Assembly (NCBI GenBank): GCA_049975265.1 | Contig: JBNGDF010000001.1 | Location: forward strand, 118,218 to 182,217 | Reading direction: 5' to 3' | Source: Fidelibacterota bacterium | GTDB lineage: Bacteria > Fidelibacterota > UBA2242 | DNA: 64,000 nucleotides | Part shown: piece after piece, positions 6,407-54,418 of the stretch | How the letters are laid out: each line of letters begins with the position of its first letter | Position numbering within the stretch: the stretch's first letter is position 1 | Position numbers and translations under genes: made by a program | Notes under the pieces: model-generated | Seen by the model: the letters and a program-made list of their open reading frames with translations, nothing else | Told to the model about the DNA's origin: nothing | Databases searched by the model: none

Positions 6407-6425
6407 CTTAAATTTGGGAGTAGCG

Positions 6426-7061
6426 ATGGGAAAAACAGGAGTGTCATTTATGATTTTTTCTTTGATGGTTGGGCTGACGGCGCCAATTGGTGCGCAGGAC
6501 ATTGGGCTGCCGCCGCCGAAATTTCAGAAGGACGTTACGCTCTATCAGACTCTGCAAAATCGTAAATCGGAACGCTCTTTTTCAGAGAAGGAACTTTCAA
6601 AGCAACATCTGTCTAATCTGCTCTGGGCGGCATCTGGTATCAATCGCCCCGAGAGCGGTAAACGGACCGCCCCGACTGCCCGCAATGCTCAGGAAATTGA
6701 TATCTATGTCGCTCTGAAAGCGGGTCTGTACCTGTACGATGTCAAAGAACACCGCCTGGTTTTGCTGGATAAAACGGACCTGCGCGGAATGACCGGGACA
6801 CAGGATTTCGTCGGAACGGCGCCGGTTAACCTCATCTTTGTAGCGGACTACGACCGCCTGAGAGGCAGCGAAGAATCACGAAAGTTTTATTCTGCCACGG
6901 ATACCGGTTTTATCAGCCAGAATGTTTATCTCTACTGTGCAGCAGAAGGGCTGGCGACCGTGGTACGCGGCAGCGTCGACCGGGAAGCGCTGGCGGCTGC
7001 GATGAAACTGCGTCCCTCGCAGCATATCATCCTCGCCCAGACAATTGGATATGGAAAGTAA
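6426..7061 (+). CDS. SagB-type dehydrogenase / nitroreductase-family protein with N-terminal signal peptide
   Basis: Start ATG 6426 after GGGAG; signal-like MGKTGVSFMIFSLMVGLTAPIGAQD; nitroreductase/SagB block RKSERSF...LSNLLWAASGINRP...RTAPTARNAQEIDIYV. Confidence 0.6.
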   Translation: MGKTGVSFMIFSLMVGLTAPIGAQDIGLPPPKFQKDVTLYQTLQNRKSERSFSEKELSKQHLSNLLWAASGINRPESGKRTAPTARNAQEIDIYVALKAGLYLYDVKEHRLVLLDKTDLRGMTGTQDFVGTAPVNLIFVADYDRLRGSEESRKFYSATDTGFISQNVYLYCAAEGLATVVRGSVDREALAAAMKLRPSQHIILAQTIGYGK

Positions 7062-7716
7062 AACCAGCAGAGGCATACGGAAAAGAATCATCGATCTGAG
7101 CCAGCTGCTGGCAACCGGAATGCCGACCTATCCGGGGGATTTGCCGGAACCGTTAATCCGCTCCGCTGTGAAAAACAATATCCGTACCTCTACCATCCGG
7201 ATTGGATCACATTACGGGACTCATATCGACGCTCCGGCGCATTTTTTCCGGGAGGGCTTGACGCTGCTGGATTATCCCCTCAGCCGTTTTTTTGGGCAGG
7301 CGGTCTGTCTCGATAAAACAGAGTCGGCGTCGGGTAAAATCGAGCTGACGAAGAACGAATCAGCCTTGATTGAGCAGCTTGAGCCGGATTGGATTCTGAT
7401 CCGGAGCGGTTTTGACCGCTATTGGGCTCAGCCTTGCTATTTTTCAAAGCACCCATTTCTCTCAGAAGAGTTGATTATGAGGCTTCTTGAGACCAGCGTG
7501 ATTGGTATTGGGGTAGATTTTCCCAGCATTGATGCGGCGGATGCGGAAGTGACCGATTATCCGGTTCACCGGCGGTGGCTTGGTGCCGGGCGGCTGGCGG
7601 TTGAAAATTTATGCAATCTGCAAAGTCTGCCGCAACATGAGATGTTTGAGTTTTGCGCTCTGCCATTAAAAACAGATACCGAGGGAGCACCGGTCAGAGC
7701 GCTGGCGTTTTTATGA
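7045..7716 (+). CDS. cyclase family protein (kynurenine formamidase-like metal-dependent hydrolase)
   Basis: Diagnostic motif HYGTHIDAPAHF (HxGTHxDxPxH) and overall ~220 aa size of cyclase/KynB family. Confidence 0.8.
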   Translation: MDMESKTSRGIRKRIIDLSQLLATGMPTYPGDLPEPLIRSAVKNNIRTSTIRIGSHYGTHIDAPAHFFREGLTLLDYPLSRFFGQAVCLDKTESASGKIELTKNESALIEQLEPDWILIRSGFDRYWAQPCYFSKHPFLSEELIMRLLETSVIGIGVDFPSIDAADAEVTDYPVHRRWLGAGRLAVENLCNLQSLPQHEMFEFCALPLKTDTEGAPVRALAFL

Positions 7717-17473: not shown

Positions 17474-18367
17474 TCAGGTCTCCTCCGGGCGCAGTAGTTC
17501 GTGCAGGAGAATTCCGGCAGAAACTGCCACATTCAGAGATTCTCCGCTGCCGTGCTTCGGAACCGCTATAATGTCATGGGCGGCATATTTAACCGCTTCT
17601 GGTAAACCGTGTGATTCACTGCCCAGAACCAAGCCCCAGTGTTTGTGTGGACAGGGTTGTACCGGTTTCCCGCCGGGATCGGCGCAGAATACCGCAATAT
17701 TCTTTTGAATACAATAGTCTAAAAGATCATCAGGGGCGACATTTTGCCATATGGAAACGTGGAAAACGGCGCCCATCGATCCACGTACAACTTTTGGAGA
17801 GTAGGGATCGACGCTGTTGGGGGAGATTATGATATGCCGGATACCAAACCAGCAGGCGGTTCTGAGGATGGTTCCCAAGTTGCCGGGATCGTTGATTTCC
17901 CAGAGAAATAGAAAGGGTGATTGTTCAGTATCTTCCGGCGGAAAAGAGTATTCCGGCAGGCTGGCAATGGCAAGAACACCCTCCGGATTTTTCTGTGAGC
18001 TAATGGATCGTATATCTGCATCCCTGACAATTTTAACCGTATCCCAGTCGACAGGAATCCCGCTGAAGATGTTTTTCTCATAAGCAGAGTGACCGAGATA
18101 GATCCGCCCGACCGGAAAGTGTGCCTCCAGCGCCTCCTTTAGGAGCTTGGCTCCCTCGAGCATGAACTGCTGCTGGCGGTAGCGGAATTTTTTCTGCTGA
18201 AGAGCAGTGACCTGCTGCCGTTCCGGGCGGGATAGCCGAAAAACCGGTTGATCTTCTCCTGACTTCTTGAATCTCTCTGGATTTCGACGGTTGCCATCAT
18301 TATATTTGCGGGGGTGTTGTACAGTGTTCACAAAAGATAAGTTATTGATAGCAGGCAAATGAAACAA
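17474..18367 (-). CDS. TrmH/SpoU family RNA 2'-O-methyltransferase (RlmB-like)
   Basis: N-terminal substrate-binding region (LQQKKFRYRQQQFMLEG), SPOUT motifs LEINDPGNLGTILRTA, LVLGSESHGL, LNVAVSAGILL; exact start uncertain. Confidence 0.8.
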   Translation of the reverse strand: MFHLPAINNLSFVNTVQHPRKYNDGNRRNPERFKKSGEDQPVFRLSRPERQQVTALQQKKFRYRQQQFMLEGAKLLKEALEAHFPVGRIYLGHSAYEKNIFSGIPVDWDTVKIVRDADIRSISSQKNPEGVLAIASLPEYSFPPEDTEQSPFLFLWEINDPGNLGTILRTACWFGIRHIIISPNSVDPYSPKVVRGSMGAVFHVSIWQNVAPDDLLDYCIQKNIAVFCADPGGKPVQPCPHKHWGLVLGSESHGLPEAVKYAAHDIIAVPKHGSGESLNVAVSAGILLHELLRPEET

Positions 18368-19519
18368 GCCCGCAACATCAGAGAAATGTTACACATGCTG
18401 GTTCTTTTTAGACGGGCGGCGCGGGTCGTATTGCTCTATTCCTGTCACGGATTGCTCAACTATTGGATTCGCCGACGCCCGGTTTTGAAAAAAAGTCAGA
18501 TCGGACTGCCCGGAAGAGACAAGATTCATCCGGCTGTTCTTTATACAACAGCAATATCCGAAAAACGCCCGGTATTTGTCGTAGTTGCCGGAACGAGTGC
18601 CTTTGCCCGGAAGCGTCAGCGCCTGAACTGCTTTGCCAAAGCCCTGGCACTGGTTGGTTATCACGTAATCATTGTAAAAAATGAAAATGGGCAGCATATC
18701 CCGGGTACAATTGATCCGACAGAAATCGGTGAAATTATTGAGGCAGTTTCCCTGGATGAGCGGTTTGACAGCAGCCGGATTGTGCTGGTGGGTGCCGATT
18801 TCAGTTCAGCCTGTTTACTGGCGGCAATGAATAATGCAGAAGCCCTTTGGAAAATCCACAGCTTTCTTTTTCTATCACCGGTGACGGATATAAGCAGTCT
18901 CATCAATTTTGCTTTTCGGGGTCGGGTCAAAATCCGGGGTCGCTGGTTTTACCGCTCCTCTTCCGTCAAAATCCGACTTCTTTATCTGTTGTTCGTCCTG
19001 AAAACCGGTCTGTCTCCCGATCAATTTGAGCGGGTATCCGGCATTATATCTCTGCTGCTATCAGACCGTCCGACGACGGCATTTCAGAAAGTTCAGACCC
19101 TTGAGTCGGATATTCACCACCTGCTGCTGGCTGTTTATAGGGGGGATATGGATACTAATGCCGTCCGGAGTTTGACGGAAATATACCGGCGTGATCTGGA
19201 TGCGTCGTATAGCGAGGCGATTCCATCATGTGATCTCGAACGCCCGGTCTTTATTGTACACAGTATCCTTGATGAGGATGTTGATTGCGGGCAGGGTCAG
19301 CTGCTCTGGGAGAAGCTGTCCAGCTCGGCAGGTGTTTACCTGCATTTGACGGATTTTGTGCTTGCCGACGGATGCCGGTCGCTTGTCACCAATCCGGCGA
19401 AATGGGTCTGGGGTGCTTTCGACATGACCCGTGCTCTTTACAGAGTACTGGCGTATCTTTACAGTGATAAAAATTTACCCTATAATCCCACCCAAACAGC
19501 CCTTCGGATGCGTATTTAA
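18359..19519 (+). CDS. hypothetical protein, degenerate alpha/beta-hydrolase-like fold
   Basis: 386 aa; hydrolase-like strand-turn-helix RIVLVGADFSSACLLA where a GxSxG elbow would be (G-A-D-F-S, last Gly missing); no other motif recognised. Confidence 0.3.
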   Translation: MKQARNIREMLHMLVLFRRAARVVLLYSCHGLLNYWIRRRPVLKKSQIGLPGRDKIHPAVLYTTAISEKRPVFVVVAGTSAFARKRQRLNCFAKALALVGYHVIIVKNENGQHIPGTIDPTEIGEIIEAVSLDERFDSSRIVLVGADFSSACLLAAMNNAEALWKIHSFLFLSPVTDISSLINFAFRGRVKIRGRWFYRSSSVKIRLLYLLFVLKTGLSPDQFERVSGIISLLLSDRPTTAFQKVQTLESDIHHLLLAVYRGDMDTNAVRSLTEIYRRDLDASYSEAIPSCDLERPVFIVHSILDEDVDCGQGQLLWEKLSSSAGVYLHLTDFVLADGCRSLVTNPAKWVWGAFDMTRALYRVLAYLYSDKNLPYNPTQTALRMRI

Positions 19520-28274: not shown

Positions 28275-29423
28275 TCAATCTCCGAGTTTGGAGAGCGCTT
28301 TGCGGGCGGATTTTAGGGCGATGGAGATCATTCTGTCCTGAAATTCTGCCACCTCTGCCGGTTTCGGCTGGATCTTTTCCCATCGTCTGAGTTGCCGTGC
28401 GGTGACACGGAATATCCGGTTTTGTGCCCGGTCCAGAATTCGGCGGAGGCTCTGATATTTGCCCATGTCAATACGGGTCTCGTCAACATAGATGGTGTTT
28501 TTAATGTCTCTGAAGACCGAATTTAAGAGCGCGCTGTCCATTCCGCTCAGTGCATCGGGTATCCGCTCTGCCCGGACCCACAGTGGAACGGCAATGGCAG
28601 CAGCCGGTTCGCCCAAGGTACACCAGAAGGTCGTCATTTCCGGACTATTATCGGCAGTGCCGTCAAAGATAGCCGCGGATACGGTTCGATGGCGGTTGAT
28701 GGTATTACGGGTCTCCCGCAGCCGGGGCTGATGGGGGTCCAGTAAGGAATCGGGCAGAGTCATGTCCCGGGAGACGGTCGTGATCAGGTAGCGGTGGTCG
28801 AGCTGCCCTTTTTGAATGGCATCGGCAATAAGCGATTTTGCCTGGTTATAGCGGATTCTGCCATAGCCTTCGGAGGAACGGGCATTGTGGGCGAAATTGG
28901 CACGTACCAGATAACCCGGTGGATCGGCATCAAACCGAAAGTATTCGTGATTGCCTGTTTCGAAGAAAGCGGCGCTTCCCAGTGCATCAATGACACCAAA
29001 ATTGCTGGTGACCTTGCGTCCCGATGAATTACTTCTGCGGAGCATCTCCTCGAAATCATCGATAGTCCGGCAGTGCCGGAGGGCGGCTTTCATCCAGATG
29101 CCCTCATCGTCGTAGCCGGTGTTTTCGTCGGGGCGTGCCAGATCGCGGGATTCGGCATTCATGATGGCAAAGCCGAAATTGTTCACTCCCGCCCAGACCT
29201 GGCTTGTATCGCCGGCATTGATCAGTCCCAGATAGTGCATGGAATTATCATTGAAAAAGACAATCGCATTTTGTTCAAAACCGGAATCCCGGTTTTTCCA
29301 GAGTAAAACGTGGTTGCTTTTGGTGGCATTTGGTCCGGCAAGTCCGGTGGTACAAGCGAAGGTAGCCGGTATGGAGCCGGAAATGCTTATCGAGATGGCG
29401 AGAATGATGAGCCTTGTTTTCAT
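28275..29423 (-). CDS. secreted N-terminal-nucleophile cysteine hydrolase, peptidase C69-like dipeptidase
   Basis: Signal peptide then ...FACTTGLAG...LLWKNRDSG matching C69 N-terminal nucleophile block (ACTTILVG...LIARNED) with Cys directly after predicted cleavage site. Confidence 0.6.
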   Translation of the reverse strand: MKTRLIILAISISISGSIPATFACTTGLAGPNATKSNHVLLWKNRDSGFEQNAIVFFNDNSMHYLGLINAGDTSQVWAGVNNFGFAIMNAESRDLARPDENTGYDDEGIWMKAALRHCRTIDDFEEMLRRSNSSGRKVTSNFGVIDALGSAAFFETGNHEYFRFDADPPGYLVRANFAHNARSSEGYGRIRYNQAKSLIADAIQKGQLDHRYLITTVSRDMTLPDSLLDPHQPRLRETRNTINRHRTVSAAIFDGTADNSPEMTTFWCTLGEPAAAIAVPLWVRAERIPDALSGMDSALLNSVFRDIKNTIYVDETRIDMGKYQSLRRILDRAQNRIFRVTARQLRRWEKIQPKPAEVAEFQDRMISIALKSARKALSKLGD

Positions 29424-31876: not shown

Positions 31877-33109
31877 CTACTGGCGACGGATGTCGATATT
31901 TCCGCCGCTGGTTTTTAGAGTAATATCATCACCGCCGCCATTGATGCGTCCTTCACCAGTGATTATCAGTTTGGAGCCACGGCTCTCTTTTTGGATGTCG
32001 AGCGGGAAATCAGAGCGGATCTCGCAACGATCCCATTTGTCATAAACCGTAATTTGGGCGAAAATGTCGGCTTTCATATAATCGGGTATTGTAAGGGAAA
32101 TATCCCCACCGGAAGATGCCAGATCAATTTTATGGTTGGGGAGCGATTTTCTAAGCAGCTTATTTACCTCAATATCTCCACCGGAGGTCCGACCGTAGAC
32201 GGCTCCGTAAACCTCAGATATGTAGATATCACCGCCTGATGTAGTAGCCTGAATTTTTTCTTCAGCCATGCGGACTTCAATATCCCCACCGGATGTGTTC
32301 AGCGTACATTCGCCGCTGACCCTGCCGATGTCAATATCGCCGCCCGAGGTATTTAGCGTTAATTCCGCATCAATATCATCGGCACCAATATCACCACCCG
32401 AGGTGCTGCCCTTGAAAAATTTACCTCTGACGCCAGCAATGTAAATGTCACCACCCGAGGTCTTGATTTCGCCGTCACCGATCAACTTTTTAACGGTAAT
32501 GTCGCCGCCCGAGGTTTTGGCGTAAGTATTGCCGGATATTTGATTTAAAACGACATCACCGCCCGAGGTTATCGCCCGGATTTCGGCTCTGCAATCACGG
32601 ATGCTTATATCTCCGCCGGAAGTATTGACCGTTAATTTTCCGGCTGTCTCCAGAATATCAATGTCTCCGCCCGAAGTACGGATTTCGATAATGCCATTTA
32701 CGGTTTCGGTCACAATATCACCACCAATTACGTCAATATTGAGATTGAAGTTGTTCGGAACCTGTATGGTAAAGTCGTTTTGATAGCGCCGGAAATTGTC
32801 ACCCCCTTCGATCGTCAGGACATCGCCCTTTTGAATATATTTGGCGCGGTAAGCCCGGAGTATTTTTTCAGCCTCTTTTTCGGAATAGGTATTAATCCGG
32901 AAACGCTCGGTAACCGTGACATTATTACGGGCTGCGCCGACAATTTTGATATCACCGCGAATCTTCTTCATCACCAGGGAGCCCTTTTCGGAAATATTGT
33001 ATTCCTTGACCGATTCGCCATGATAACGCATGCCGTCGTATTCCAATTTCTGAGCCGGCAGCTGGCAGTAGAGAAGGATTAAAATTAAAATTAGACGATT
33101 TATTTTCAT
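31877..33109 (-). CDS. DUF4097-family putative adhesin / beta-helix repeat protein (secreted), TSGGDI repeat type
   Basis: Signal peptide LILILILLYCQLPAQ; at least 13 tandem ~19-aa units each containing (T/S)SGGDI(x)I; stop overlaps start region of downstream paralogue. Confidence 0.6.
   Translation of the reverse strand: MKINRLILILILLYCQLPAQKLEYDGMRYHGESVKEYNISEKGSLVMKKIRGDIKIVGAARNNVTVTERFRINTYSEKEAEKILRAYRAKYIQKGDVLTIEGGDNFRRYQNDFTIQVPNNFNLNIDVIGGDIVTETVNGIIEIRTSGGDIDILETAGKLTVNTSGGDISIRDCRAEIRAITSGGDVVLNQISGNTYAKTSGGDITVKKLIGDGEIKTSGGDIYIAGVRGKFFKGSTSGGDIGADDIDAELTLNTSGGDIDIGRVSGECTLNTSGGDIEVRMAEEKIQATTSGGDIYISEVYGAVYGRTSGGDIEVNKLLRKSLPNHKIDLASSGGDISLTIPDYMKADIFAQITVYDKWDRCEIRSDFPLDIQKESRGSKLIITGEGRINGGGDDITLKTSGGNIDIRRQ
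31912..32707 (-). repeat. intragenic ~57-nt periodic imperfect tandem repeats (encode TSGGDI beta-strand units)
   Basis: Recurring ccgccgga / ccacc(c)ga(g/a)gt(g/a) ... atatc(a/g)cc blocks visible on plus strand 32100-32700. Confidence 0.5.
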
Positions 33110-39259: not shown

Positions 39260-41470
39260 TTATTTCTTTTTGGGCAATATCTTATGTTTTCCCGACGAAG
39301 ATTTGCTCAGAACCTGATACATCTGCCTGGCTGTTTTGCACGCCAGCAGTTTTTTACGACCCTCTTCGTCAAAAGCCTGACTGATCATAGACATAAAGTG
39401 CATATGCGGTGCCGAGGCACTCTCCGGCGAAAGTGTCAGCACGATGATATTAGCCGGCTTTCCGTCAACGGAATGAAACTCAACTCCCTCCCGCTTGATT
39501 CCAATTGCGCAGACCAGCCGATCAACGGCGTCACAGCGTCCATGGGGAATGGCGATGCCGTACTGAATGCCGGTTGACATGCTTGCCTCCCGCTCGAGGA
39601 CAGTTTTCCGCGCTAACTCACAATCCTTTATCAATCCCTGGCTGTTCAGAATGTGCAGCAGTTCGTCAATGATCTCTTCTTTGGTGTCACCCTTAAGTGA
39701 GGGGCATAATACACCGGGTGTCAGGTACTGAGCCAGATCGCTTCGGATCGGCATTTTGGTCGGGGATTGCTCCTGAATGCGCCGGACAACGGCGGCGCTG
39801 TCGATTGGTTTGCGAAGCGCCTTGACCGTCGTCTCAAATTCGGCGAATACCTCATACATTGCCGTATTGATGTAGGGCACAATACTTTTATCGCAATCAA
39901 TATTGATGGTATGAAGGTCAACCTCTACACCGATGATCATGTCGTCCTTGCGCAGCTGATAAATCTGGCGGGGCTGGTTCAGGGTGTGGATGTAGAATCC
40001 TTCCAATTCAAACAGGTTGAACAGTTTGCTGGTCATCAGGCTGGCGGTCTGAACATTGGGAAACTGGAAGGAGAGCCGGGTCTCCTCGGTTTTGCGGATC
40101 TGCCGCCGGACGCCGCTCTGGTCGTGCCGGAAAATGGTTACTAGCACAGGCGGTGAAATCAGCGTCGTTATCAGGGTCATCATTACGGCGATTCCAAAAA
40201 ATTCCGGTGGTAACAGACCCGCCGCCAGACCGATGCCGGCGATAATCAACGCCACCTCGCCTCTTGGCAGCATGCCCACCCCGATCCGCAGGGCGCCCCG
40301 CAGGTTGAAATTGGCAAAAAGGGTCGGTATACCACAGCCGAAAACCTTTGATACAATTGCGCCAAAGGTGTATAAGAGTCCAAACAGCAAAACCGTTTTG
40401 GAAGCCAGCAGACGGACATCAACCAGCATGCCCATAACGGTGAAAAAGACCGGCACGAGAAAAGAGTAAATCGGTCCCATTTTTTCCATAATCACATGGT
40501 TAATATCGGTTTTTGAGAGGGATAATCCCATAATGTAGGCGCCGATAATCATCGCCAGTCCCGCCTCTTCGAAAAGTCCTGCCAGGACCAGCGCGAATCC
40601 CAATGCCATCATGGCGATGGAGGTGCGGTCATGAAACCATTTCAGCAGGAGACTGATTTTGCGGGAAGCCAGCAGACCGATAATTGTAGCCGCCGCCCAG
40701 ATACCAAAAGCCTTGACTGAAATAATGCCGATATGAGCCCAATCGACATAACCTGATTTTGCCGAAGCGGCGACGATTCCGAGACCGATGGCCAGCAGAA
40801 TGATACCGAGTACGTCATCGATTACCGCGCCCGCCAGGATGGTCACCCCTTCCGGCGAATCGAGTTGGCGTTGCTCTGATAAAATCCGGGCGGTGATTCC
40901 CACCGATGTGGCGGTGGCTATGATCCCCAGAAACAGGCAGGGAGGCGAAAAAAAGCCCAGCTGGGTTCCGAAGAACCATTTGGATAACCAGATCGTGAGC
41001 AGGTCACCGATTATAAAGGAGAAAAGGACGCCTCCGATGCCCACAATACCGCCGATGACGGAGTAGCGTAAAAACAGGCGGAAATCGGTCTCCAGTCCGA
41101 TCATGAACAGCAGCACAATGGATGCCACTGTGCTGATTCCGTACAATTCGGGTGATATGGGAAAATTGTTCGAGCTGATTGGAAATATACCCGCCGGAAA
41201 GCCGGGCAGCGGAACCGCGCCGAGTAAAAAGGGTCCGATTAGAATGCCGGCAAACAGTTCACCCAGGACACCGGGCATTTTGAATTTTTCGAAAGATATA
41301 TTGCCCAGGCGCGCTGCAAACAGAATGAGCCCCAGTTGTATGACCAGCATCATCATGCGGTGAGTCATAGTGCCCGGGAGGGCGGTTTGAGTGGCAGAGA
41401 AGAGATAATCCGAAGCCAGGAGTCCGACCATTAATTGCAGGCAACGTTTGGTGAAACGATTTATTTTCAT
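39260..41470 (-). CDS. CPA2-family cation:proton antiporter (KefB/NhaP-like) fused to C-terminal PTS EIIA(Ntr/fructose-type) domain
   Basis: N-terminal ~400 aa with 12-13 TM helices and Na+/H+ exchanger blocks (LGELFAGILIGP, GLETD); C-terminal ~150 aa with EIIA-2 phospho-His motif GIAIPHGRC and regulatory linker. Confidence 0.8.
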   Translation of the reverse strand: MKINRFTKRCLQLMVGLLASDYLFSATQTALPGTMTHRMMMLVIQLGLILFAARLGNISFEKFKMPGVLGELFAGILIGPFLLGAVPLPGFPAGIFPISSNNFPISPELYGISTVASIVLLFMIGLETDFRLFLRYSVIGGIVGIGGVLFSFIIGDLLTIWLSKWFFGTQLGFFSPPCLFLGIIATATSVGITARILSEQRQLDSPEGVTILAGAVIDDVLGIILLAIGLGIVAASAKSGYVDWAHIGIISVKAFGIWAAATIIGLLASRKISLLLKWFHDRTSIAMMALGFALVLAGLFEEAGLAMIIGAYIMGLSLSKTDINHVIMEKMGPIYSFLVPVFFTVMGMLVDVRLLASKTVLLFGLLYTFGAIVSKVFGCGIPTLFANFNLRGALRIGVGMLPRGEVALIIAGIGLAAGLLPPEFFGIAVMMTLITTLISPPVLVTIFRHDQSGVRRQIRKTEETRLSFQFPNVQTASLMTSKLFNLFELEGFYIHTLNQPRQIYQLRKDDMIIGVEVDLHTINIDCDKSIVPYINTAMYEVFAEFETTVKALRKPIDSAAVVRRIQEQSPTKMPIRSDLAQYLTPGVLCPSLKGDTKEEIIDELLHILNSQGLIKDCELARKTVLEREASMSTGIQYGIAIPHGRCDAVDRLVCAIGIKREGVEFHSVDGKPANIIVLTLSPESASAPHMHFMSMISQAFDEEGRKKLLACKTARQMYQVLSKSSSGKHKILPKKK

Positions 41471-41542
41471 TGATTTGTTACATGGTAGCAGCCGCTCGTG
41501 CTGTGCGGGATTCGGAACGTGCTACCTGTATGGAGGTGAAAT

Positions 41543-41887
41543 TTACTCATTTTTTAAATTCATATAGCAGGAGCCTTCGAATTTTGCTCCGTCTTCGATG
41601 ACTAGTTGTGCCGCTTTGATGTCACCTTTGAGAACGGCTTTTTCGCCCAAAACAACTTTTCCCGCGGCGTTCACATTACCCTGGATATTGCCGCCGATAC
41701 TGATGTCCTCGCCGTGCAGATTGCCGCGGATTCGCGCGGTTGGCGATAGCGTGATGGAATTTTTAGTGCTGATGTCCCCTTCCACCTGTCCGTAAATAAT
41801 GATATTGCCATCCAGCTGAATATTGCCGGTGATGCCGGTGTCTTCACCGATAATAGTGTTGATCGTCGAATCTTTTTTCTTATTCAT
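41543..41887 (-). CDS. bactofilin family cytoskeletal protein
   Basis: Beta-helical DUF583 repeats (ITGNIQLDGNIIIYGQVEGDI, IRGNLHGEDISIGGNIQGNV, VLGEKAVLKGDIKAAQLVIEDGAKFEG); start set to ATG 41887 with AAGGAG 6 nt upstream (track start 41908 overlaps M23 gene). Confidence 0.75.
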   Translation of the reverse strand: MNKKKDSTINTIIGEDTGITGNIQLDGNIIIYGQVEGDISTKNSITLSPTARIRGNLHGEDISIGGNIQGNVNAAGKVVLGEKAVLKGDIKAAQLVIEDGAKFEGSCYMNLKNE

Positions 41888-41897
41888 GGTCGGCTCC

Positions 41898-42713
41898 TTA
41901 TTCTCCATAGTTATTGACAGAAATATCGGCGCGGCGGTAGGAATAGATCATACTCTGGGGATCAATCGGTTTGCCCTCACGCCAGATTTCGAAGTGCAGA
42001 TGCGGTCCCTGGCTGATGCCGGTATTTCCCAGAAAGCCGATAATATCGCCCCGCTTGAGATATTGGTGCTCTTCGACGATATTGCGCTGGTTGTGTCCAT
42101 AGATTGTAAAATAGCCGTTGGGGTGGTACAGAATGATCGTGTAGCCCAAATCGTAGGTCCAGTTGGAAAATACCACTACTCCTGAAGCAGAGGCATGAAT
42201 CGGAACACCCTCCGGAGCGGCAATGTCGACCCCGTAATGATTGTCCTGCAACAGAATATGGTCATCAACAAATCCCTGGGTAATATAACCCTCCACCGGC
42301 GGATAAATCGGGACATTGTCCAAGTAGCTGATTTCCACCGATTTTTCCTGGGAATGATTGGTGATTTCCAAAGGCAGGAACATAGAATCGAGGTAGGCGG
42401 AATCCAGCGAGGCGATGTTCAGGTCGGTTCCCAGCACCGAGCGAATATACTGGTCCATCTGACGGATTTTATTGTAATCGCTTAAAATCTTGGTGACCTT
42501 CAGGCGGTCCACAATCAGGCGTTCATTCTCCGCTACCAGATCGTTGTACTGTCTGGCGCGGGGAATCAGATAGACAGCGCCGGTGATAATGAGGATGATA
42601 AAGAGTGTCAATAATACCAGCACCGTTTTGGCGAAAATGGAGCTGAACGTGAGTCGTAGTGGTGTTTCCCGGGCATCGCTGATCAGATGCAGGGTATAGT
42701 GTCTTTTTTTCAT
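41898..42713 (-). CDS. M23 family peptidoglycan metalloendopeptidase (membrane-anchored)
   Basis: N-terminal TM anchor, LytM/M23 motifs HYGVDIAAPEGVPIHASASG (HxxxD) and GNTGISQGPHLHFEI (HxH). Confidence 0.85.
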   Translation of the reverse strand: MKKRHYTLHLISDARETPLRLTFSSIFAKTVLVLLTLFIILIITGAVYLIPRARQYNDLVAENERLIVDRLKVTKILSDYNKIRQMDQYIRSVLGTDLNIASLDSAYLDSMFLPLEITNHSQEKSVEISYLDNVPIYPPVEGYITQGFVDDHILLQDNHYGVDIAAPEGVPIHASASGVVVFSNWTYDLGYTIILYHPNGYFTIYGHNQRNIVEEHQYLKRGDIIGFLGNTGISQGPHLHFEIWREGKPIDPQSMIYSYRRADISVNNYGE

Positions 42714-43579
42714 TGATTGCGATCCTCGATTAATTCGAACAGCTCGACCAGGCGCCCCAGGTCCTCTTTTGAATAGTATTCGATCTCGATAACACCGCGC
42801 TCCTTTCCTCTGATTTTTACCCGTGAACCGACAATATGCATTAAGCGGTCTTCCAACGGTTTGTACCGTTTGTCGGGCGCCGGTTTTCCGGCGGGCGGCT
42901 TTTTCTCCGGAGCGGTGGACATTTTCTTTACCAGCAGCTCTGTGGCGCGAACGCTCAGGGCGTCGCGCTTGATTTTTCGCCAGAGATTCAGCTGCTGTTC
43001 GCGGTTGGGAATGGTGATAATGGGGCGGGCATGACCAGCGCTGAGTTTCTGGTCTTTCAGGTCCCGCAGAATCTCATCGGGGAGAGACAGCAGACGGAGA
43101 GAGTTGGTGATTGTTGAGCGCTCTTTGCCGACCTTTTGGGCGATATCCTCATGAGACAGGTTAAAGGTATTGATCAGCAGCTGGTAGGCTTGTGCCTCTT
43201 CCACAGGATTCAGATTTTCCCGTTGGATGTTTTCGATCAGTGCCATCTCCATCATCTCCACATCGCTGGCGACGGGCAGAACGTAGGCGGGGATGCTGTT
43301 GTGTTCCAGTTCGATACAGGCGCGCAGGCGCCGTTCACCGGCAATCAGTTCAAAGCCATTCTCCTTTTGCCGGACAGTAATGGGTTGAATAATGCCCTTT
43401 TCACGGATGGACTGCTTTAATTCCTCCATTGCCTGGGGATTGAATTCTTTGCGGGGCTGGTTGGGATTCACCTGCACCTTTTCCACTTCGATTTCGGCAA
43501 TCTGATTGCTGAGATCGATTCCCTGCGGAAATTCGGGAATAATGGCTCCGAGACCTTTACCGAGTCGTTTGACCGTCAT
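42710..43579 (-). CDS. parB: ParB/Spo0J chromosome partitioning protein
   Basis: ParB box IQPITVRQKENGFELIAGERRLRA, HTH region, C-terminal dimerisation domain; ATGA overlap with M23 gene. Confidence 0.9.
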   Translation of the reverse strand: MTVKRLGKGLGAIIPEFPQGIDLSNQIAEIEVEKVQVNPNQPRKEFNPQAMEELKQSIREKGIIQPITVRQKENGFELIAGERRLRACIELEHNSIPAYVLPVASDVEMMEMALIENIQRENLNPVEEAQAYQLLINTFNLSHEDIAQKVGKERSTITNSLRLLSLPDEILRDLKDQKLSAGHARPIITIPNREQQLNLWRKIKRDALSVRATELLVKKMSTAPEKKPPAGKPAPDKRYKPLEDRLMHIVGSRVKIRGKERGVIEIEYYSKEDLGRLVELFELIEDRNQ

Positions 43580-44333
43580 TTTGCAGTATCTCTCCCACCA
43601 GATTCATGTAATCCTGAGCCCCGGCTGCCGAGGCATCGTAAAGGATGATCGGTTTGCCGAAGCTGGGCGATTCGCCCAGGCGGACATTCCTCCGGATGAT
43701 AGTGTTATACACTTTTTCTTTGAAATGGCTGCGAACCTGCTCGGTGACCTCCTGAGAGAGCCGCAGACGGGAATCGTACATCGTAATCAGCACTCCCTCG
43801 ATCTGCAGGTCGCGGTTTAGATTGCGCTGAACAAGCCGGATGGTGTTTAACAGCTGTCCTAGCCCTTCCATGGCATAATACTCACACTGGATCGGAATCA
43901 GGACCGATTGGGCGGCGGTCAGACTGTTAATCGTCAATAAACCCAGAGAAGGCGGGCAGTCGATAATGATATATTTATATTCCTTTTTCAGATGACTGAT
44001 CGCTTTTTTCAAAACAATTTCGCGACTGATCATGGAGACCATCTCAATTTCGGCGCCTACCAGTTGTGGCGAAGAGGGTACCACCTCGAGAAAGGGAATT
44101 TCCGTGGAATGAATATGCTCGTTGATATCTAAACCGTCTACCAGAACATTGTAGATATTTTGGTCGGTGGATTGGTAGTCAATGCCACAGCCGATGGTGG
44201 CATTTGCCTGGGGGTCCATGTCGATTAGCAGGGTATGGACCTCGGACACCGCCAGACCCGCGGCTAGATTGACGGAGGTTGTCGTCTTGCCAACGCCGCC
44301 CTTCTGATTGGCGACGGTTATGATTTTTGTCAC
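43557..44333 (-). CDS. parA: ParA/Soj chromosome partitioning ATPase
   Basis: Deviant Walker A KIITVANQKGGVGKTTTSVNLA, Walker B IIIDCPPSL, 258 aa. Confidence 0.9.
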   Translation of the reverse strand: MTKIITVANQKGGVGKTTTSVNLAAGLAVSEVHTLLIDMDPQANATIGCGIDYQSTDQNIYNVLVDGLDINEHIHSTEIPFLEVVPSSPQLVGAEIEMVSMISREIVLKKAISHLKKEYKYIIIDCPPSLGLLTINSLTAAQSVLIPIQCEYYAMEGLGQLLNTIRLVQRNLNRDLQIEGVLITMYDSRLRLSQEVTEQVRSHFKEKVYNTIIRRNVRLGESPSFGKPIILYDASAAGAQDYMNLVGEILQNDGQTTR

Positions 44334-44442
44334 CCGACTTCTCTAAACATAATAATTACAAATAGTTCCAACTTTTTCGACCCACTCTGTAAAGCAAAGC
44401 AAATTTAATTCTGACCCGTCCTAAAATCAAGGCAAAAGGCGG

Positions 44443-45888
44443 CTACGCTTTTCGCCAGAATTTTGGAACAAAGATTAAAAAAACCGAATAGAATTCCAGC
44501 CGTCCGAAAAGCATGCAGGCGATCAAAATCCATTTTGTAAATGCCGGCAGACCCAGATAGCTGCCCAGAGGACCGGTTTGCCCGAGTCCCGGACCGACGC
44601 CGCCCAGGGTGGTTGCCACGGAAAAAAATGCCGTATTCAGGTCTGCGCCGGCAGCCGTCATGAGCATTGAGGCAAGAAAGAAGAACAGCAGATAGATGCC
44701 GATGAATACCAGCACGGTCCGGATGGTCTTATCATCGATAGTGCGGGAATTCAGCCGGACAGGTCGAACGACACGGGGATGAATCATCTGGATCAGTTCG
44801 CGGTAGATGCTTTTCATCAGGATGATGATGCGGGAATTTTTTATCGCGCCGGTTGTCGAGCCGGGGCAGGCTCCGACGAACATCAGGATGAGCAGGACAA
44901 TCTGGCTGAGTGGTCGCCATTCTCCGTAGTCGGCGGTTATAAAACCGGTGGTGGTGTTGATAGATACGGTTTGAAACACACCGTAGCGGAAAGCCTCGGT
45001 CAGCCTGTCGTAATGATTCAGGCGCAGATCCACAACGATAATGGTTGCACAGCAGAGCATAAAGAGAAAGTAAAATTTCAGAACGCTGCCGAACTGCCGG
45101 TGGCTCCGATTGCGTTTAAAAAATACCAGATAGAGAGAAAAATTGATTCCGGCTAGGAACATAAAGATTGTCACGATTGTCTCGACGTAGGGGCTGTTGT
45201 AATGGGCGATGCTGGCGTTACGGGGGGAGAATCCACCGGTTGGAATCGTCCCCATAGCCGTCAGGGCGGCGTCATACAGCGAGAGTCCGCCCAGCAGCAG
45301 GAGCCCCGTCTCAATGACGGTGAGTGCCAGATAAACGATCCAAAGCAGCCGGGCGGTGTCCTTGATTTTCGGGGTGATCCGCTCCTGAGCGATGGACGAC
45401 GATTCGAAATTGTAAAGATTGCGGGCACTTACATTAATTACAGGCAAAATGACCAGCGCCAGAATGACGATGCCCATGCCGCCGATCCAATGGGTCATGC
45501 TGCGCCAGATTAGCAGACTGGCGGGCAGGGCTTCGATATCCTCCAGCACCGATGCGCCGGTAGTCGTAAACCCGGAGACGCTTTCAAAGAAGGCGTCCAG
45601 AAAACCGTGAAAGTAACCAGAAAGTTGGAAGGGGAGTGCGCCAATTAGTGAGGCGATGAGCCAGCCGAATACAACCATCGCCACGGCTTCGCGTCTTTCG
45701 ATAATGAGCTCGGCGGGTTTGTTCCAGCCCAACAACAGTCCGGCTGAGATAGCGATGATAATGGGAAGCAGAAAGATGCGCATCGGAGCATCACCGTTGA
45801 GAAGGCTGAATACCAGTGGAATCATCAAAAAGATACCCAGCACCACCAGCAGTGTACCCAGTAGGGCAAAGAGATGACGAATTCTCAT
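44443..45888 (-). CDS. trkH: TrkH/KtrB family K+ uptake membrane subunit
   Basis: 481 aa, four MPM repeats with selectivity-filter glycine segments (TTGASV, TTGFIT, LGGVGPG...). Confidence 0.9.
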   Translation of the reverse strand: MRIRHLFALLGTLLVVLGIFLMIPLVFSLLNGDAPMRIFLLPIIIAISAGLLLGWNKPAELIIERREAVAMVVFGWLIASLIGALPFQLSGYFHGFLDAFFESVSGFTTTGASVLEDIEALPASLLIWRSMTHWIGGMGIVILALVILPVINVSARNLYNFESSSIAQERITPKIKDTARLLWIVYLALTVIETGLLLLGGLSLYDAALTAMGTIPTGGFSPRNASIAHYNSPYVETIVTIFMFLAGINFSLYLVFFKRNRSHRQFGSVLKFYFLFMLCCATIIVVDLRLNHYDRLTEAFRYGVFQTVSINTTTGFITADYGEWRPLSQIVLLILMFVGACPGSTTGAIKNSRIIILMKSIYRELIQMIHPRVVRPVRLNSRTIDDKTIRTVLVFIGIYLLFFFLASMLMTAAGADLNTAFFSVATTLGGVGPGLGQTGPLGSYLGLPAFTKWILIACMLFGRLEFYSVFLIFVPKFWRKA

Positions 45889-46826: not shown

Positions 46827-47606
46827 ATGAAAAAGACCGATTTTTCTTATCTTCCGGAAAAAAAACGCCTGCTCTATGAGCAGATTGCGCGCTCCTACCG
46901 AATTCGTGAGCGTCAGAAAAATCTTGCCTGGACCCCTTTCGAGGCAAAGCTGATCGATAGTAAAATTGCCTTTATCTCCCTGTGCGGTGCCTATCTGAAA
47001 AGCGGTAAACCTTTTACCCGAGAATCCCAGGAGAGCAACTATACTTACCGCTCGATCGATATCAATTTTGATCGCGCCGAACTGGCGTTTTGTGCGCTGG
47101 ATTGGGAGACTTCGGAGCTGCAGCAGGATATCAATGTGGTCTTGCCGATTGACCGACTGGTTTTACTGCAGAAAGAGGGACTGATTGGAAAGGTGAATGA
47201 GAATTTCTACAGCTTTTTAGGTATCAACGATGAGCACGAGCTTCTGGATAAGGCGATTAAAAAATTGGTGAAACAGCTGAAGAGCGATGATTGTGTGGGG
47301 GTGCTGATTATTCCCTGTTCAGCCCGCACCGCCGAGACCGCCTGTCTGATTGCCAATCAACTGGAGGCGTCAAGGCTGTCCACCGTCATGCTGACACCCT
47401 TTTACGAGCAGGCGCTGGTGATGTCACCGCCGCGTTGTGCGTTTATCAATTTTCCTTTCGGTCGGATTTTGGGAAAGGCGAATCATGTTACCCTGCATAC
47501 GGCTATTCTGCGCGACACTTTACGGTTGTTCGAGAAAGCCAAGGTGCCGGGTGAAATCTTGAACCTTAACTTTATCTGGTCTTATGGTCAGATTCCGGAC
47601 TGGTAA
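46827..47606 (+). CDS. hypothetical protein (Cys-containing alpha/beta fold; possible distant GrdB/PrdB-reductase-family relative)
   Basis: 259 aa, no clear motif; VLIIPCSARTAETACL segment; assignment to reductase family is a weak recollection only. Confidence 0.3.
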   Translation: MKKTDFSYLPEKKRLLYEQIARSYRIRERQKNLAWTPFEAKLIDSKIAFISLCGAYLKSGKPFTRESQESNYTYRSIDINFDRAELAFCALDWETSELQQDINVVLPIDRLVLLQKEGLIGKVNENFYSFLGINDEHELLDKAIKKLVKQLKSDDCVGVLIIPCSARTAETACLIANQLEASRLSTVMLTPFYEQALVMSPPRCAFINFPFGRILGKANHVTLHTAILRDTLRLFEKAKVPGEILNLNFIWSYGQIPDW

Positions 47607-50570: not shown

Positions 50571-52031
50571 TTAAAAATACCGGCTAAGAGACAATTGGTG
50601 GCTGGTTCCGCCCCGCTCCACTGTTTTCTTGCCGGGAACCGGCTCGGTGAAGTGCACCGGGCTCTCATCGAGGCGTCTGATGACCGGGAGCAGCTGGCTC
50701 AGCCGGTACTCCAGGGCATAATCGCCGAAATTGTACTGTAAAGCGCTCTGGATATCGAAGATATTGGCATCAAGGCGAAGGGGATAGTCCAGCGGTGTCG
50801 CCACCAATCCAAATTCCAGCTCGGCTTCCCCCACCATTTGCAGAAAAATCCTTGAATGCAGATAATGTCCCAGCAAAGTGAACCGGATTTTTGATTTTGA
50901 AAGGCGATAAAAATAGAGAACATCCTGACTGAAAATCCGCCCCTTCCGGAGTTCGCCCCCGGCTTTGTGGGAGATTGGCAGAATACCGTAAAGAACCCCC
51001 AATACCGGCGTCCGGAGGGAGAAATCACCGCCGAATGCAGACAGTGAGACTCCGGCACGGAAGTGATGATCTGCTCCGGTATGGTGGCAAAGCAGTGCTC
51101 CGCTGTTGAGGCTGAAATCCCCCGATCCAAGTTCGTCAAAATCGGTGAAGGAGGGCGGATGATTGTCGGTGTGGTAATGGAGTCCGGCATGCGAATAACG
51201 AATTTCAGCTGCCAGGCAGGCGGGCTCTGACTGTCCCAGCTTCAGAGAGAGCTGGGTCGAATGAAATCGGGTTGGGATATCCAGGATCCGCCTGCCGTTC
51301 AGAACCGGTTTGTTGGTGGTATTGTTGTAGCGAAAAGTAACGGCATTGTCCCATTGAAAGTGATTCAGAGCGATACACAGACGGTTTTGGTCATTGCGGA
51401 GAGGAATACTGATCCAGGGAGTCAATTCGAACTGTTGCGTGCGGATTTTGGATTGAATGGGATTCCCGAATGTCCGGGGCAACCAGTCAAGGAAATAACG
51501 GTTCAGGCGTGAATCTTCCGAGTGGGGATAGGTTTTGATAACGGCTGTCGCGGAATGACTCCGGGATGTCGAGCGGAATTGCAGTCCCAGACTTTTGTTA
51601 TTGGCGGCTCTGACCCAAAGGATGGCATAGGTCTGCCCCTTTCCGTTGCCTTCACCCCGCACGGCGGTCCGGTCGCGCTGGTTTTCGGCGGCAAGCCGAT
51701 CAAGTCCAATGTGAACCCTGAAGATATGGTCCGCCGCCGCGGTTCTGACAGGTAATACGAATCGAAAACAGCCCGATTGCTGGTCTGTTGTCAAGACCCG
51801 TTGGTCGAAAATTCTTTTCCGGTAGATATCGTCATACCGATAGGTGATGTTGAACTCTTTTGTGATGCTTGCAATTTGCCGGTGCAGAATACCGTTGAAA
51901 TCATCAAGAAGCGCCAACCGGGTAAAGCTGTCCTGCCACCGGGCGGTGGTGATTTGTATAAATAAAGCAGTAAAGCAGAAGGGGAAAAGCAGTCTACCTT
52001 TCCCCTTTTGAATTGCATAAACAGGTTTCAA
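50571..52031 (-). CDS. hypothetical outer-membrane beta-barrel protein
   Basis: 486 aa, alternating aromatic/hydrophilic strands, His/Arg-rich, C-terminal ...LSLSRYF with terminal Phe typical of OMP beta-signal; 8-nt gap after T9SS cargo gene. Confidence 0.4.
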   Translation of the reverse strand: MKPVYAIQKGKGRLLFPFCFTALFIQITTARWQDSFTRLALLDDFNGILHRQIASITKEFNITYRYDDIYRKRIFDQRVLTTDQQSGCFRFVLPVRTAAADHIFRVHIGLDRLAAENQRDRTAVRGEGNGKGQTYAILWVRAANNKSLGLQFRSTSRSHSATAVIKTYPHSEDSRLNRYFLDWLPRTFGNPIQSKIRTQQFELTPWISIPLRNDQNRLCIALNHFQWDNAVTFRYNNTTNKPVLNGRRILDIPTRFHSTQLSLKLGQSEPACLAAEIRYSHAGLHYHTDNHPPSFTDFDELGSGDFSLNSGALLCHHTGADHHFRAGVSLSAFGGDFSLRTPVLGVLYGILPISHKAGGELRKGRIFSQDVLYFYRLSKSKIRFTLLGHYLHSRIFLQMVGEAELEFGLVATPLDYPLRLDANIFDIQSALQYNFGDYALEYRLSQLLPVIRRLDESPVHFTEPVPGKKTVERGGTSHQLSLSRYF

Positions 52032-52039: not shown

Positions 52040-54418
52040 CTATTTCATGAGCGTCATTTTGCGGGTCATCATTTTGTCATTTACCAGCAATTTCAGGAAG
52101 TAGATACCGGAGGGATAGCCCGCGGCGTTCCATTGTAATCTGATTTTCCCGGCGTTCAGTGGTCCATTGTGCAGATTACCGACGATTTCGCCCCTTAGAT
52201 TGACGATGCTGACGGAGATGTCGGCGGCTTCGGGCAGGTCGAAAGCGATCGTCGCTACCGGGTTAAACGGATTCGGATAAACGGGGTGCAGAGCGAATGA
52301 AACCGGCAGTTTCGGCGCTTCCTCTACCCCCACCTCTTTGTAGCGATCGGGAAACATTCCGCCCATGGTACTGTCAACGCCCAGTGCAAAATTTTTCCAC
52401 ATGGTTAAAAAACTGGTCGGCGGATTATCAAACCAGGCGGAGAGATTGACCCGCTCCCCGTCGATCCACATCATGGAATCCGGATAGGCAAAATCCTCGT
52501 ACATTTCCCAGGCGTTGAAGGACATCATATCCATAATAAATTCCATCTCGGTGGCGTCCATACCAAAATCATCTTCATAAGGTTTCATGGCGGTCGCCAG
52601 ATTGACCATATTGTCAAAGAATGTGCCGAGATTCAGAAAGGCGTCCTCGAGCCAGGCACCGGCTTCATGAAATTTTTCAATACCGTAAGGCGTTACGGTG
52701 AGAAAATCCGGGTTGGACTGTTCCAGAATCAGGATAATGTCCAACTCTGATTCCACGTTGGAGAAGTCCAGTACCGCGGGGTCCAGGTCCAGGATGAAAA
52801 TATTGCTCAGTTCTGCATAGATATTCGATAAGCCGTCGGCGATCATGGACATCCCGTCAATCGCCAGCTCCATTGCAGCGGTCATCAGGGCAACATGCGA
52901 TACGGTCAGAGGGGTAATGGAAAATTCCGAGTTTTCATCCAGAGAATAGAGACCACCGATCTCGTCTTCATTTTCCAAAATAAGAATAACATAGTTCACC
53001 GCCTCTTCGCTTTCGATATATTGATCGATGTGGTAGCGGATTTCGCTGATCTGATCCTGGAGATCGAAGCTGCTCCAATCATAATAGAAGGTCAGGCTGT
53101 CAATATATCCCTCGGAGATAAAATAGAGCGACCGGTCGATATCACCGAAAAACTCCTCGTCATTCAGCATGTCATACAGCAGGGTCAGAGCCAGCCCGAA
53201 GTGCTCGTCGGGAGTAACCAGAGAAGGCGTCAGGGTTTCTTTGGTCAGGAGCGCCTGTTGATATAAGTGCAGTTTGTTTTCAAATTGCTCTACACTATCA
53301 TTAGCGTTCAGAATAATGTCCGATTCTATCATGGCATACATATCAGAAGTGATGCCCTGCGGGAAGGTATTGCTGAATGTAAAGGATTCGGGTTCACCAT
53401 TGCGGTAAAAGTCCTGGAATACACCCCAGAGACCGTCGTGATGGGCGAGACTTTCGATGATACCGCGCGGACGGATTGTTTTGTTTTCTGCTTCAGGTTC
53501 GATGGGATACTCTTTGCCAGCCATGAGAGTGTCAAACTCCACGACCAGTTCCTGCAGGGAATCGATAAACGCCAGATCCAACTCCAACGGAGCAAAGGGC
53601 TGATTCAATAAGAGGACCTGAATCGAGTCGAGCAGCGCATAGAGCGAATCCAGTCCCATATGTACGACGGTGACACCGGGTTCAATGTCATCGCTGTTTG
53701 CATTTAGTGAATCCACGACCTGCGTCCAGCCGCTGTCCAGAGCGGTGCCCATATTTTCGCCCAGAAGACCGATCCTGTCAACACGGTCGAAGAGTGCCCT
53801 TGAAAATACGAACAGCGTATCTTCATATTCGGTTCCGGTTAATTGAACATAGTACTCAAAATCGGCGGTTCCATTAGCGACGGCGTCCCAGTTATCCCCG
53901 AATGTTCCGGCGATGGGATCGGTCTTTTCGAAAAAGAGCTCCAGAGCGACTTCCATATCGTATACATCGGAATTGATGTTGTCCAGCCAGAGCTGAACGG
54001 AATCCCGGTAAGCCGGATAGGTCCCGGAATCAAAAAATTCAGTCAATTGCAGCACGAAGTCGTTGGGATTTTCCGCCAGAAAGAGGGGCAGAATATCCAC
54101 CAGAGACTGGATGGCGATATTAATGGAATTTCTTTGCAGATCATTGAGAAGATATTCCATGTCGCTGATCAGTGTGTCGCCGTTGATATGTGTCCGGGCA
54201 GCCTGGATAATGGCGAGTCCCATATGAGCTTTCATAGTCTGTTCATCATCGGCGCCCGGCAATAACGCAAGATATTCGGTTTCCATACTGTCCAGATAAT
54301 CAATATATGCGGGCGAAATATCCGCTTGCAGTACGATATCGGGCGTCTGGGCACTCAGGGGGAAACAAAATAAAATAACAAGAAATAGGAACGTAAGATT
54401 TTTTGTAGCTTTTTTCAT
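52040..54418 (-). CDS. large acidic secreted protein with T9SS C-terminal sorting domain (function unknown)
   Basis: Signal peptide LTFLFLVILFCFPLSAQ; 792 aa, strongly Asp/Glu-rich; C-terminal ...ISVSIVNLRGEIVG...GKIRLQWNAAGYPSGIYFLKLLVND... type-A T9SS CTD. Confidence 0.6.
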   Translation of the reverse strand: MKKATKNLTFLFLVILFCFPLSAQTPDIVLQADISPAYIDYLDSMETEYLALLPGADDEQTMKAHMGLAIIQAARTHINGDTLISDMEYLLNDLQRNSINIAIQSLVDILPLFLAENPNDFVLQLTEFFDSGTYPAYRDSVQLWLDNINSDVYDMEVALELFFEKTDPIAGTFGDNWDAVANGTADFEYYVQLTGTEYEDTLFVFSRALFDRVDRIGLLGENMGTALDSGWTQVVDSLNANSDDIEPGVTVVHMGLDSLYALLDSIQVLLLNQPFAPLELDLAFIDSLQELVVEFDTLMAGKEYPIEPEAENKTIRPRGIIESLAHHDGLWGVFQDFYRNGEPESFTFSNTFPQGITSDMYAMIESDIILNANDSVEQFENKLHLYQQALLTKETLTPSLVTPDEHFGLALTLLYDMLNDEEFFGDIDRSLYFISEGYIDSLTFYYDWSSFDLQDQISEIRYHIDQYIESEEAVNYVILILENEDEIGGLYSLDENSEFSITPLTVSHVALMTAAMELAIDGMSMIADGLSNIYAELSNIFILDLDPAVLDFSNVESELDIILILEQSNPDFLTVTPYGIEKFHEAGAWLEDAFLNLGTFFDNMVNLATAMKPYEDDFGMDATEMEFIMDMMSFNAWEMYEDFAYPDSMMWIDGERVNLSAWFDNPPTSFLTMWKNFALGVDSTMGGMFPDRYKEVGVEEAPKLPVSFALHPVYPNPFNPVATIAFDLPEAADISVSIVNLRGEIVGNLHNGPLNAGKIRLQWNAAGYPSGIYFLKLLVNDKMMTRKMTLMK

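Follow-up and report, generated by a model that had tools for sequence, protein, structure and literature searches.

Why should the genes that partition a chromosome stand in one tightly packed block with the genes of a cell wall hydrolase and of a cytoskeletal protein? The question is raised by a four-gene block, parA-parB-M23 peptidase-bactofilin, on the minus strand of a 64,000-nucleotide stretch of contig JBNGDF010000001.1 (positions 118,218 to 182,217; assembly GCA_049975265.1) of a Fidelibacterota bacterium, the whole of which is referred to here as the window. A preliminary description of this DNA had suggested that the bactofilin forms a scaffold positioning the peptidoglycan endopeptidase and/or the origin-segregation machinery. 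The answer which we favour, and which we hold to be probable though well short of certain, is that the block is a conserved housekeeping transcription unit that co-expresses an ordinary ParAB system and a morphogenetic pair of the LmdC-BacA/Csd1-CcmA type, and that was inherited from an older gene string of the FCB (Fibrobacterota-Chlorobiota-Bacteroidota) group.

The four genes and their minus-strand positions are as described previously; each corresponds to an open reading frame (ORF) with a Pfam match. In the order of reading, the elements of the block are the following:

43557 to 44333, minus strand: parA, encoding a Soj-type partition ATPase of 258 aa with a GTG start (Pfam, deviant Walker A motif, positional orthologues in relatives)
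42710 to 43579, minus strand: parB, Spo0J-type, 289 aa (Pfam, NCBIfam TIGR00180, GERRLRA and LGKGLGAI motifs)
41898 to 42713, minus strand: gene of a bitopic M23 endopeptidase of the LmdC/Csd1 type, 271 aa (Pfam, invariant active site, AlphaFold2 model)
41894 to 41899, minus strand: Shine-Dalgarno sequence AAGGAG of the bactofilin gene, read directly 6 nt before the ATG at 41887 and sharing bases with the M23 stop codon
41543 to 41887, minus strand: bactofilin gene, 114 aa from its second ATG (Pfam, PDB relatives, start chosen via orthologues)

The tight coupling attributed to these genes can be read in the sequence itself. The parA stop codon (43559-43557) is located inside parB, whose ATG is at 43579, giving an overlap of 23 nt, and parB and the M23 gene share an ATGA at 42713-42710, an overlap of 4 nt; both overlaps are retained in the closest relatives. 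The M23 stop codon TAA occupies 41900-41898. The longest bactofilin ORF (41543-41908) would overlap the M23 gene by 11 nt; the true start is, however, likely the ATG at 41887 and not that at 41908, because AAGGAG precedes the former and the resulting N-terminus, MNKKKDSTINTIIG, agrees with the orthologues. With this start the spacer between the M23 stop codon and the bactofilin gene is 10 nt; the closeness of the two genes thus stands as first reported, and only the distance of 11 nt needs correction.

Whether this order is kept in related genomes, the check which the preliminary description had proposed, was addressed by taking a single genome of each species and searching it for proteins related to M23; the resulting 80 loci (designated below by L numbers) were annotated with profiles made from the ParA, ParB, M23 and bactofilin proteins of the window. 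A bactofilin gene lies directly 3' of the M23 gene in 74 of the 80 species-level genomes, and parB lies directly 5' of it in 48 of the 76 evaluable ones, all belonging to Marinimicrobia, Calditrichota and KSB1/Zhuqueibacterota or being unlabelled metagenome-assembled genomes. parB is missing from this place in every one of 28 further evaluable loci, which come from Ignavibacteriota, Bacteroidota, Kryptoniota, Latescibacterota and Rhodothermota and from two records with odd labels. The source names of the M23 homologues are Candidatus Marinimicrobia, Neomarinimicrobiota, Fidelibacterota and Caldithrix abyssi, which assigns the window to the Marinimicrobia (SAR406) within the FCB group. The complete parA-parB-M23-bactofilin order occurs on contigs whose M23 homologues are 77%, 46% and 39% identical, the last being that of C. 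abyssi; two more Fidelibacterota-type contigs also carry it. The four-gene adjacency is not a matter of chance, and loss of the order in relatives, which the preliminary description had named as a refutation, is not what is seen. In a neighbour-joining tree of the M23 proteins, the parAB-linked genes fall nearly all on one side, so that the linkage follows organismal descent; the exceptions are two long-branch loci devoid of parB (one from Latescibacterota, one labelled Gammaproteobacteria) that are placed among the parAB-linked genes. The M23 genes of the Ignavibacteria, the group to which Ignavibacterium album and Melioribacter roseus belong, are on the parAB-less side of this tree, and the genes found there 5' of M23 are Sua5 and lipopolysaccharide-synthesis genes.

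Among close relatives the four-gene block is constant and its flanks are variable, with trkH and a downstream Na+/H+ exchanger gene each present or absent. For instance, trkH is 5' of parA in the window and in L010, L011 and L012, and a divergent acyltransferase gene abuts parA in L008 and in L007, the closest relative. Another locus, L005 (CP070787.1, a complete Fidelibacterota genome of 3.1 Mb), has parA-parB-M23 at 4275-6822, followed not by bactofilin or atp genes but by a CsgG/PEGA-domain gene and the gene of a giant FG-GAP/Laminin_G protein. This break immediately after M23 is lineage-specific, the full string being kept in the close relatives L087 and L089.

What the second half of the block encodes is indicated by the M23 protein. 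Its Peptidase_M23 domain (Pfam, E 1.9e-32, match over residues 158-252) contains an intact LytM-type site (HxxxD, catalytic His and HxH), and the residues H159, D163, H207, H238 and H240 are invariant among 19 aligned homologues; since all zinc and catalytic residues are kept, the protein is expected to have enzyme activity of its own, unlike an activator of the LytM type. The AlphaFold2 model (mean predicted local distance difference test score, pLDDT, of 74) begins with a β-hairpin (strands 5-10 and 19-24, pLDDT 72-82), continues with a single long helix (25-94) that comprises a transmembrane segment (hydrophobic stretch at about 28-52) and a coiled coil, and ends, after a disordered linker (94-129), with the M23 domain (130-265). 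This is the layout of LmdC, a bitopic DD-endopeptidase that combines a coiled coil with an M23 domain and whose conserved cytoplasmic β-hairpin binds the bactofilin BacA (PMC10945521). The predicted hairpin of the window protein follows a pattern, [KR]-Y-T-[LVF]..., which is conserved among its homologues; its likeness to that of LmdC is one of architecture. The closest solved structure is Csd1 of Helicobacter pylori, both by sequence (5J1L_A, E 5e-22) and by fold (5J1L_C, root-mean-square deviation 1.8 Å, 35% identity), and the Pgp3 model is the second-best NCBIfam match (72 bits, against a cut-off of 300). An exact-match look-up of the protein returned no record. The second partner has a Bactofilin domain (Pfam, E 1.2e-26), with Thermus thermophilus bactofilin (6RIA) and Caulobacter crescentus BacA (2N3D) as PDB relatives; it is a minimal bactofilin, the few residues beyond the domain making up a short C-terminal tail. 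Adjacency, the match to Csd1 and the bitopic layout thus uphold the earlier view of the pair as one of the Helicobacter Csd1/CcmA kind and, as judged from sequence and model, identify it as the published morphogenetic module of the LmdC-BacA (Csd1-CcmA) type.

A 380-aa ORF in which M23 and bactofilin are fused in frame (P0119, on an ENA contig of 1232 bp, the stop codon being replaced; compare L022) was considered as Rosetta-stone evidence and rejected, since the joining of a periplasmic M23 domain to a cytoplasmic bactofilin is topologically implausible and the case is single. It is probably due to a lost stop codon, a sequencing error or a pseudogene.

Such a pair could instead act at the division site, and not in the general control of shape; it would there cleave septal peptidoglycan and, through its co-expression with parAB, tie the separation of the daughter cells to partitioning. 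Many M23/LytM proteins indeed act in division (EnvC, NlpD and DipM, which are among the structural and family matches of the window protein), BacA and LmdC of Hyphomonas neptunium work at the bud neck, where this organism divides (PMC10945521), and co-transcription alongside cell-cycle genes would be compatible with this role. However, LytM factors of division are mostly catalytically dead activators of another architecture, whereas the window protein has an intact active site and the LmdC layout; it scores far under the cut-off of every NCBIfam division-protein model, and no fts, ami or ftsEX gene is found in the block or adjoining it in relatives. We consider a dedicated function in division unlikely.

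The first half of the block has little that is unusual. ParA matches the Pfam family AAA_31/CbiA (E 6e-68), with the ParA model also matching, and residues 9-19 of its translation, NQKGGVGKTTT, are a deviant Walker A motif (KGGxGK[ST]). ParB has HTH_ParB (E 1e-34) and ParB_N (4e-29) domains and a weak ParB_C match (0.003) in Pfam; it reaches 171.7 bits with NCBIfam TIGR00180 (cut-off 58.45) and remains below the cut-off of the Noc model, and its translation displays an N-terminal LGKGLGAI and an AGERRLRA that is apparently the CTP-binding motif (GERRxRA). The two proteins look like an ordinary chromosomal Soj/Spo0J partitioning pair. Cognate parS sites, which are TGTTNCACGTGAAACA-like palindromes, are missing from the window: the 16-mer TGTTTCACGTGAAACA has no match with up to three mismatches in the whole 64 kb, in agreement with the preliminary description, in which none had been spotted by eye. 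In about 1 Mb of related loci there was no enrichment: the five matches all have three mismatches and none lies within the called parA, parB, M23 or bactofilin genes. De novo searches found no repeated palindrome of 14-18 nt in the window and no palindrome half-site common to several species. To judge from these scans, parS must be outside the 64-kb window or have diverged past recognition. As to signs of a nearby replication origin, the window has no GC-skew switch, and dnaA, rsmG and mnmG are not among the ORFs scanned.

On its other side, the M23-bactofilin pair has a second and wider linkage. Directly after the bactofilin gene, and often overlapping it, 60 of 75 evaluable loci carry an AtpI-like gene (Pfam ATPase_gene1) and then a full F-type ATP synthase operon (L003, L006, L014-L031, L034-L048, L050-L053, L055-L058, L060-L067, L069, L071-L073, L076-L077, L080, L082, L084-L089). 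This is also the case in Ignavibacteriota, Bacteroidota and Kryptoniota, where the link to parAB is absent. The older string accordingly reads (parA-parB)-M23-bactofilin-atpI-atpBEFHAG...; the window is free of atp genes throughout, its sub-clade (L001, L007-L013) having lost this part. Since M23-bactofilin is joined to ATP synthase at least as faithfully as to parAB, adjacency is weak evidence of a physical partnership.

These observations bear on the proposal that the bactofilin polymer positions ParB-parS and/or ParA in addition to the hydrolase, and so couples origin segregation with local wall hydrolysis. In its favour, the four-gene order is found in 48 species genomes of Marinimicrobia, Calditrichota and KSB1, the stop/start overlaps in Marinimicrobia suggest a fixed stoichiometry, the missing parS makes an unusual arrangement of the partition complex conceivable, and in Myxococcus bactofilins are able to organise the ParABS system (PMC5703909). 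The proposal nevertheless meets with several difficulties. The pair persists without parAB in the sister phyla, where parB is upstream in 0 of 28 evaluable loci, and it is equally tight with the ATP synthase genes, for which a link with segregation is not plausible. The bactofilin is a lone and short one without a long C-terminal tail, the length and domains of ParB are ordinary, no PadC-like adaptor gene occurs in the window, a profile search of the window found no second ORF with a ParB domain, and none for bactofilin or M23 either, and profile annotation gave no more than one ParB match per related locus. Finally, BacM, which is encoded in the parAB operon of Myxococcus xanthus, serves cell shape only, the localisation of ParA and ParB and segregation being independent of it (PMC5703909, PMC3899335). 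Neither a bactofilin scaffold for ParABS nor the analogy with the BacNOP-PadC system of Myxococcus, both put forward in the preliminary description, finds support here, and we regard this type of coupling as quite unlikely.

Two features at the ends of the block bear on its transcription:

44400 to 44431, minus strand: candidate promoter of the block, consisting of CTTG (44431-44428), a 20-nt spacer and TAAATTTG (44407-44400); conserved, promoter-like motif
41479 to 41530, minus strand: moderate hairpin (RNA fold -17.2 kcal/mol, z = -2.1) without a U-tract, within the 72 nt that follow the bactofilin gene

Upstream of parA, six species share CCTTTT.CCTTG.TTTTA-N-TTAAATTTG without any change, amid surroundings that diverge. 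The motif is situated just 3' of the trkH stop codon, and it is present whether trkH or the divergent acyltransferase gene is upstream. The consensus of Bacteroidota-type promoters is TTTG at -33 and TAnnTTTG at -7. From 41300 to 44600, the minus strand has no TAnnTTTG other than the candidate, and in the entire window no other on this strand has a TTG at -33. CTTG-N20-TAAATTTG resembles a promoter when judged against the Bacteroidota consensus, which may not hold for Marinimicrobia. A scan for σ70-type promoters yielded only background (8 matches, with 7.0 expected), including one weak match within parA on the minus strand. At the other end, a consensus scan revealed no minus-strand terminator within the block or in the gap after bactofilin, the nearest ones being inside trkH and the Na+/H+ exchanger gene. 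The hairpin at 41479-41530 is not clearly a terminator; as it has no U-tract and its region is unconserved in relatives, read-through into the next gene is possible. By comparison, L009 (at ~1790-1840) and L010 (at ~7190-7240) have a hairpin and a T-run (GAGCAA...GCTCTTTTT) just 3' of bactofilin, with no equivalent in the window, and the 3' end of the unit may differ even between close relatives. The opposite view, that the adjacency is historical only and that parAB and M23-bactofilin have separate promoters and regulation in a compact genome that mimics an operon, can appeal to the wide parB-M23 gap of most Calditrichota and KSB1 loci, to the weak σ70-like match inside parA and to the unrelated functions held in the string, notably ATP synthase, but it is very unlikely given that the parB/M23 ATGA overlap is conserved in the window and its relatives with no intergenic space, that the promoter-like matches are at background and that the sole conserved promoter-like motif is 5' of parA.

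We thus return to the housekeeping unit and propose the following scheme. The four genes would be read, probably, from the one conserved promoter 5' of parA, and coupled translation would probably ensure that both modules are produced together. The bactofilin would polymerise at the cytoplasmic face of the inner membrane and, by analogy with alphaproteobacterial LmdC, bind the short β-hairpin at the N-terminus of the bitopic M23 protein, thereby setting the site at which the periplasmic M23 domain cuts peptidoglycan cross-links. The linkage itself would have been inherited from the string parA-parB-M23-bactofilin-atpI-ATP synthase, common to Marinimicrobia, Calditrichota and KSB1, and would yield co-expression without a physical complex between ParAB and the bactofilin.

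Several points weigh against this scheme. Three lineages of phylum rank share the order, and in Marinimicrobia the genes overlap or nearly abut; conservation and packing of this kind are frequently the sign of a true functional tie. ParA or ParB might yet touch the bactofilin or the M23 protein. In most Calditrichota and KSB1 loci, parB and M23 are separated by 118-329 nt, which leaves room for a separate promoter, and the coupling may be looser in these phyla. Hairpin binding and DD-endopeptidase specificity are both carried over from the alphaproteobacterial LmdC. Lastly, the N-terminus of the bactofilin, MNKKKDST, carries the lysines of the membrane-targeting consensus MFSKKKK but lacks its Phe, position 2 not being hydrophobic, whereas the orthologues of Calditrichota, KSB1 and Cytophagales start with M-[LF]-G/N-K. 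This consensus is a global one for bactofilins, and some phyla have other N-terminal motifs, so that it is no strict criterion for the family (PMC12448750). The attachment of the window bactofilin to the membrane may differ from that of BacA, and in this sub-clade it may lean on the hairpin of the M23 protein.

A bolder version of the linkage would have the ParABS system of Marinimicrobia, Calditrichota and KSB1 coupled physically or temporally to a bactofilin-M23 complex, for instance by docking of ParA or ParB on the bactofilin polymer without PadC; more widely still, the string parAB-M23-bactofilin-atpI-ATP synthase would reflect how the membrane is actually arranged in space about a scaffold of bactofilin. 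We believe this to be highly improbable. Were the ParAB linkage functional, it would constitute an adaptor-free tie between chromosome segregation and wall hydrolysis in a large and mostly uncultured marine lineage, and the story of bactofilins and ParABS in Myxococcus would reach the FCB superphylum. Caldithrix abyssi, which is culturable and has the same gene order, is a place to test whether the adjacency means more than co-expression. What is new is in any case narrower than the preliminary description implied, as each of the two associations had been published before: bactofilin and M23 genes are neighbours in 226 species, including the Ignavibacteria relatives of the present family, I. 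album and M. roseus (PMC10945521), and parAB and bacM form an operon in Myxococcus. Our literature searches brought up no earlier description of the four-gene order in Marinimicrobia, Calditrichota or KSB1, nor of the link to the atp operon; among the papers listed for a bactofilin together with ATP synthase and atpI, none mentioned a bactofilin. The published bactofilin-M23 module is now extended to these three lineages, and the pair is shown to be embedded in an old string that flanks it with parAB and, at the other end, with the ATP synthase operon.

The genes surrounding the block in the window deserve brief mention. The TrkH-family cation transporter gene (44443-45888, minus strand) is between the divergent acyltransferase gene and parA. 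Next after bactofilin, on the same strand (39260-41470), is the gene of a 736-aa protein in which the membrane domain of a Na+/H+ exchanger is fused to a C-terminal phosphotransferase system (PTS) EIIA-2 domain; at the corresponding position, L001 has a CBS-EIIA-2 protein and then an ArsB/CitMHS-type transporter. This suggests that ion transport in the clade is under an EIIA(Ntr)-like control. A 259-aa protein (46827-47606, plus strand), conserved beside the acyltransferase in relatives, matches just the C-terminal part of GRDB (glycine/sarcosine/betaine reductase B; E 5e-7). Four ORFs of 382-486 aa (50571-52031, minus; 18359-19519, plus; 28275-29423, minus; 31877-33109, minus) remain unmatched in Pfam at E <= 1e-5; the first of these adjoins the gene of a 792-aa protein (52040-54418), whose C-terminal sorting domain for type IX secretion is in keeping with an organism of the FCB group.

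How does the block compare with the known systems that combine these components? The BacNOP-PadC scaffold of Myxococcus has in common with the window the presence of bactofilins and ParABS in one organism. It requires PadC as an adaptor and a heteropolymer built from three paralogues with BacP at its centre, all encoded apart from parAB (PMC5703909), whereas the window is devoid of a PadC-type gene, of bactofilin paralogues and of a long C-terminal extension like that of BacP. The parAB-bacM locus of M. xanthus is the closest tested precedent: the bactofilin gene is 3' of the chromosomal parAB in the same orientation, and parA-parB-bacM-MXAN_7474 are co-transcribed (PMC3899335). In the window, however, an M23 gene is intercalated between parB and bactofilin, whereas the fourth gene in Myxococcus, located after bacM, encodes a putative lipoprotein. 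The phyla are unrelated, and the parAB-bactofilin linkage may have arisen independently in each.

The remaining comparisons concern the M23-bactofilin pair. The Csd1/Csd2-CcmA system of H. pylori and Pgp3-CcmA of Campylobacter likewise have an M23 gene beside that of the bactofilin, and Csd1 is the best solved match; unlike in Helicobacter, the window has one M23 gene, with no inactive Csd2-like partner and no csd5/csd7/murF context. The effect of CcmA on Csd1 is reported to be indirect (PMC13393453). The system LmdC-BacA of H. neptunium and Rhodospirillum rubrum (Pöhl et al. 2024, PMC10945521) belongs to another phylum; the window M23 protein is much shorter, the pair is behind parAB and the Phe of the membrane-targeting motif is missing from the bactofilin. 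It nonetheless has the same adjacent and co-oriented M23 and bactofilin genes, and the same bitopic M23 protein with a short N-terminus containing a predicted β-hairpin, a transmembrane helix, a coiled coil and all zinc ligands.

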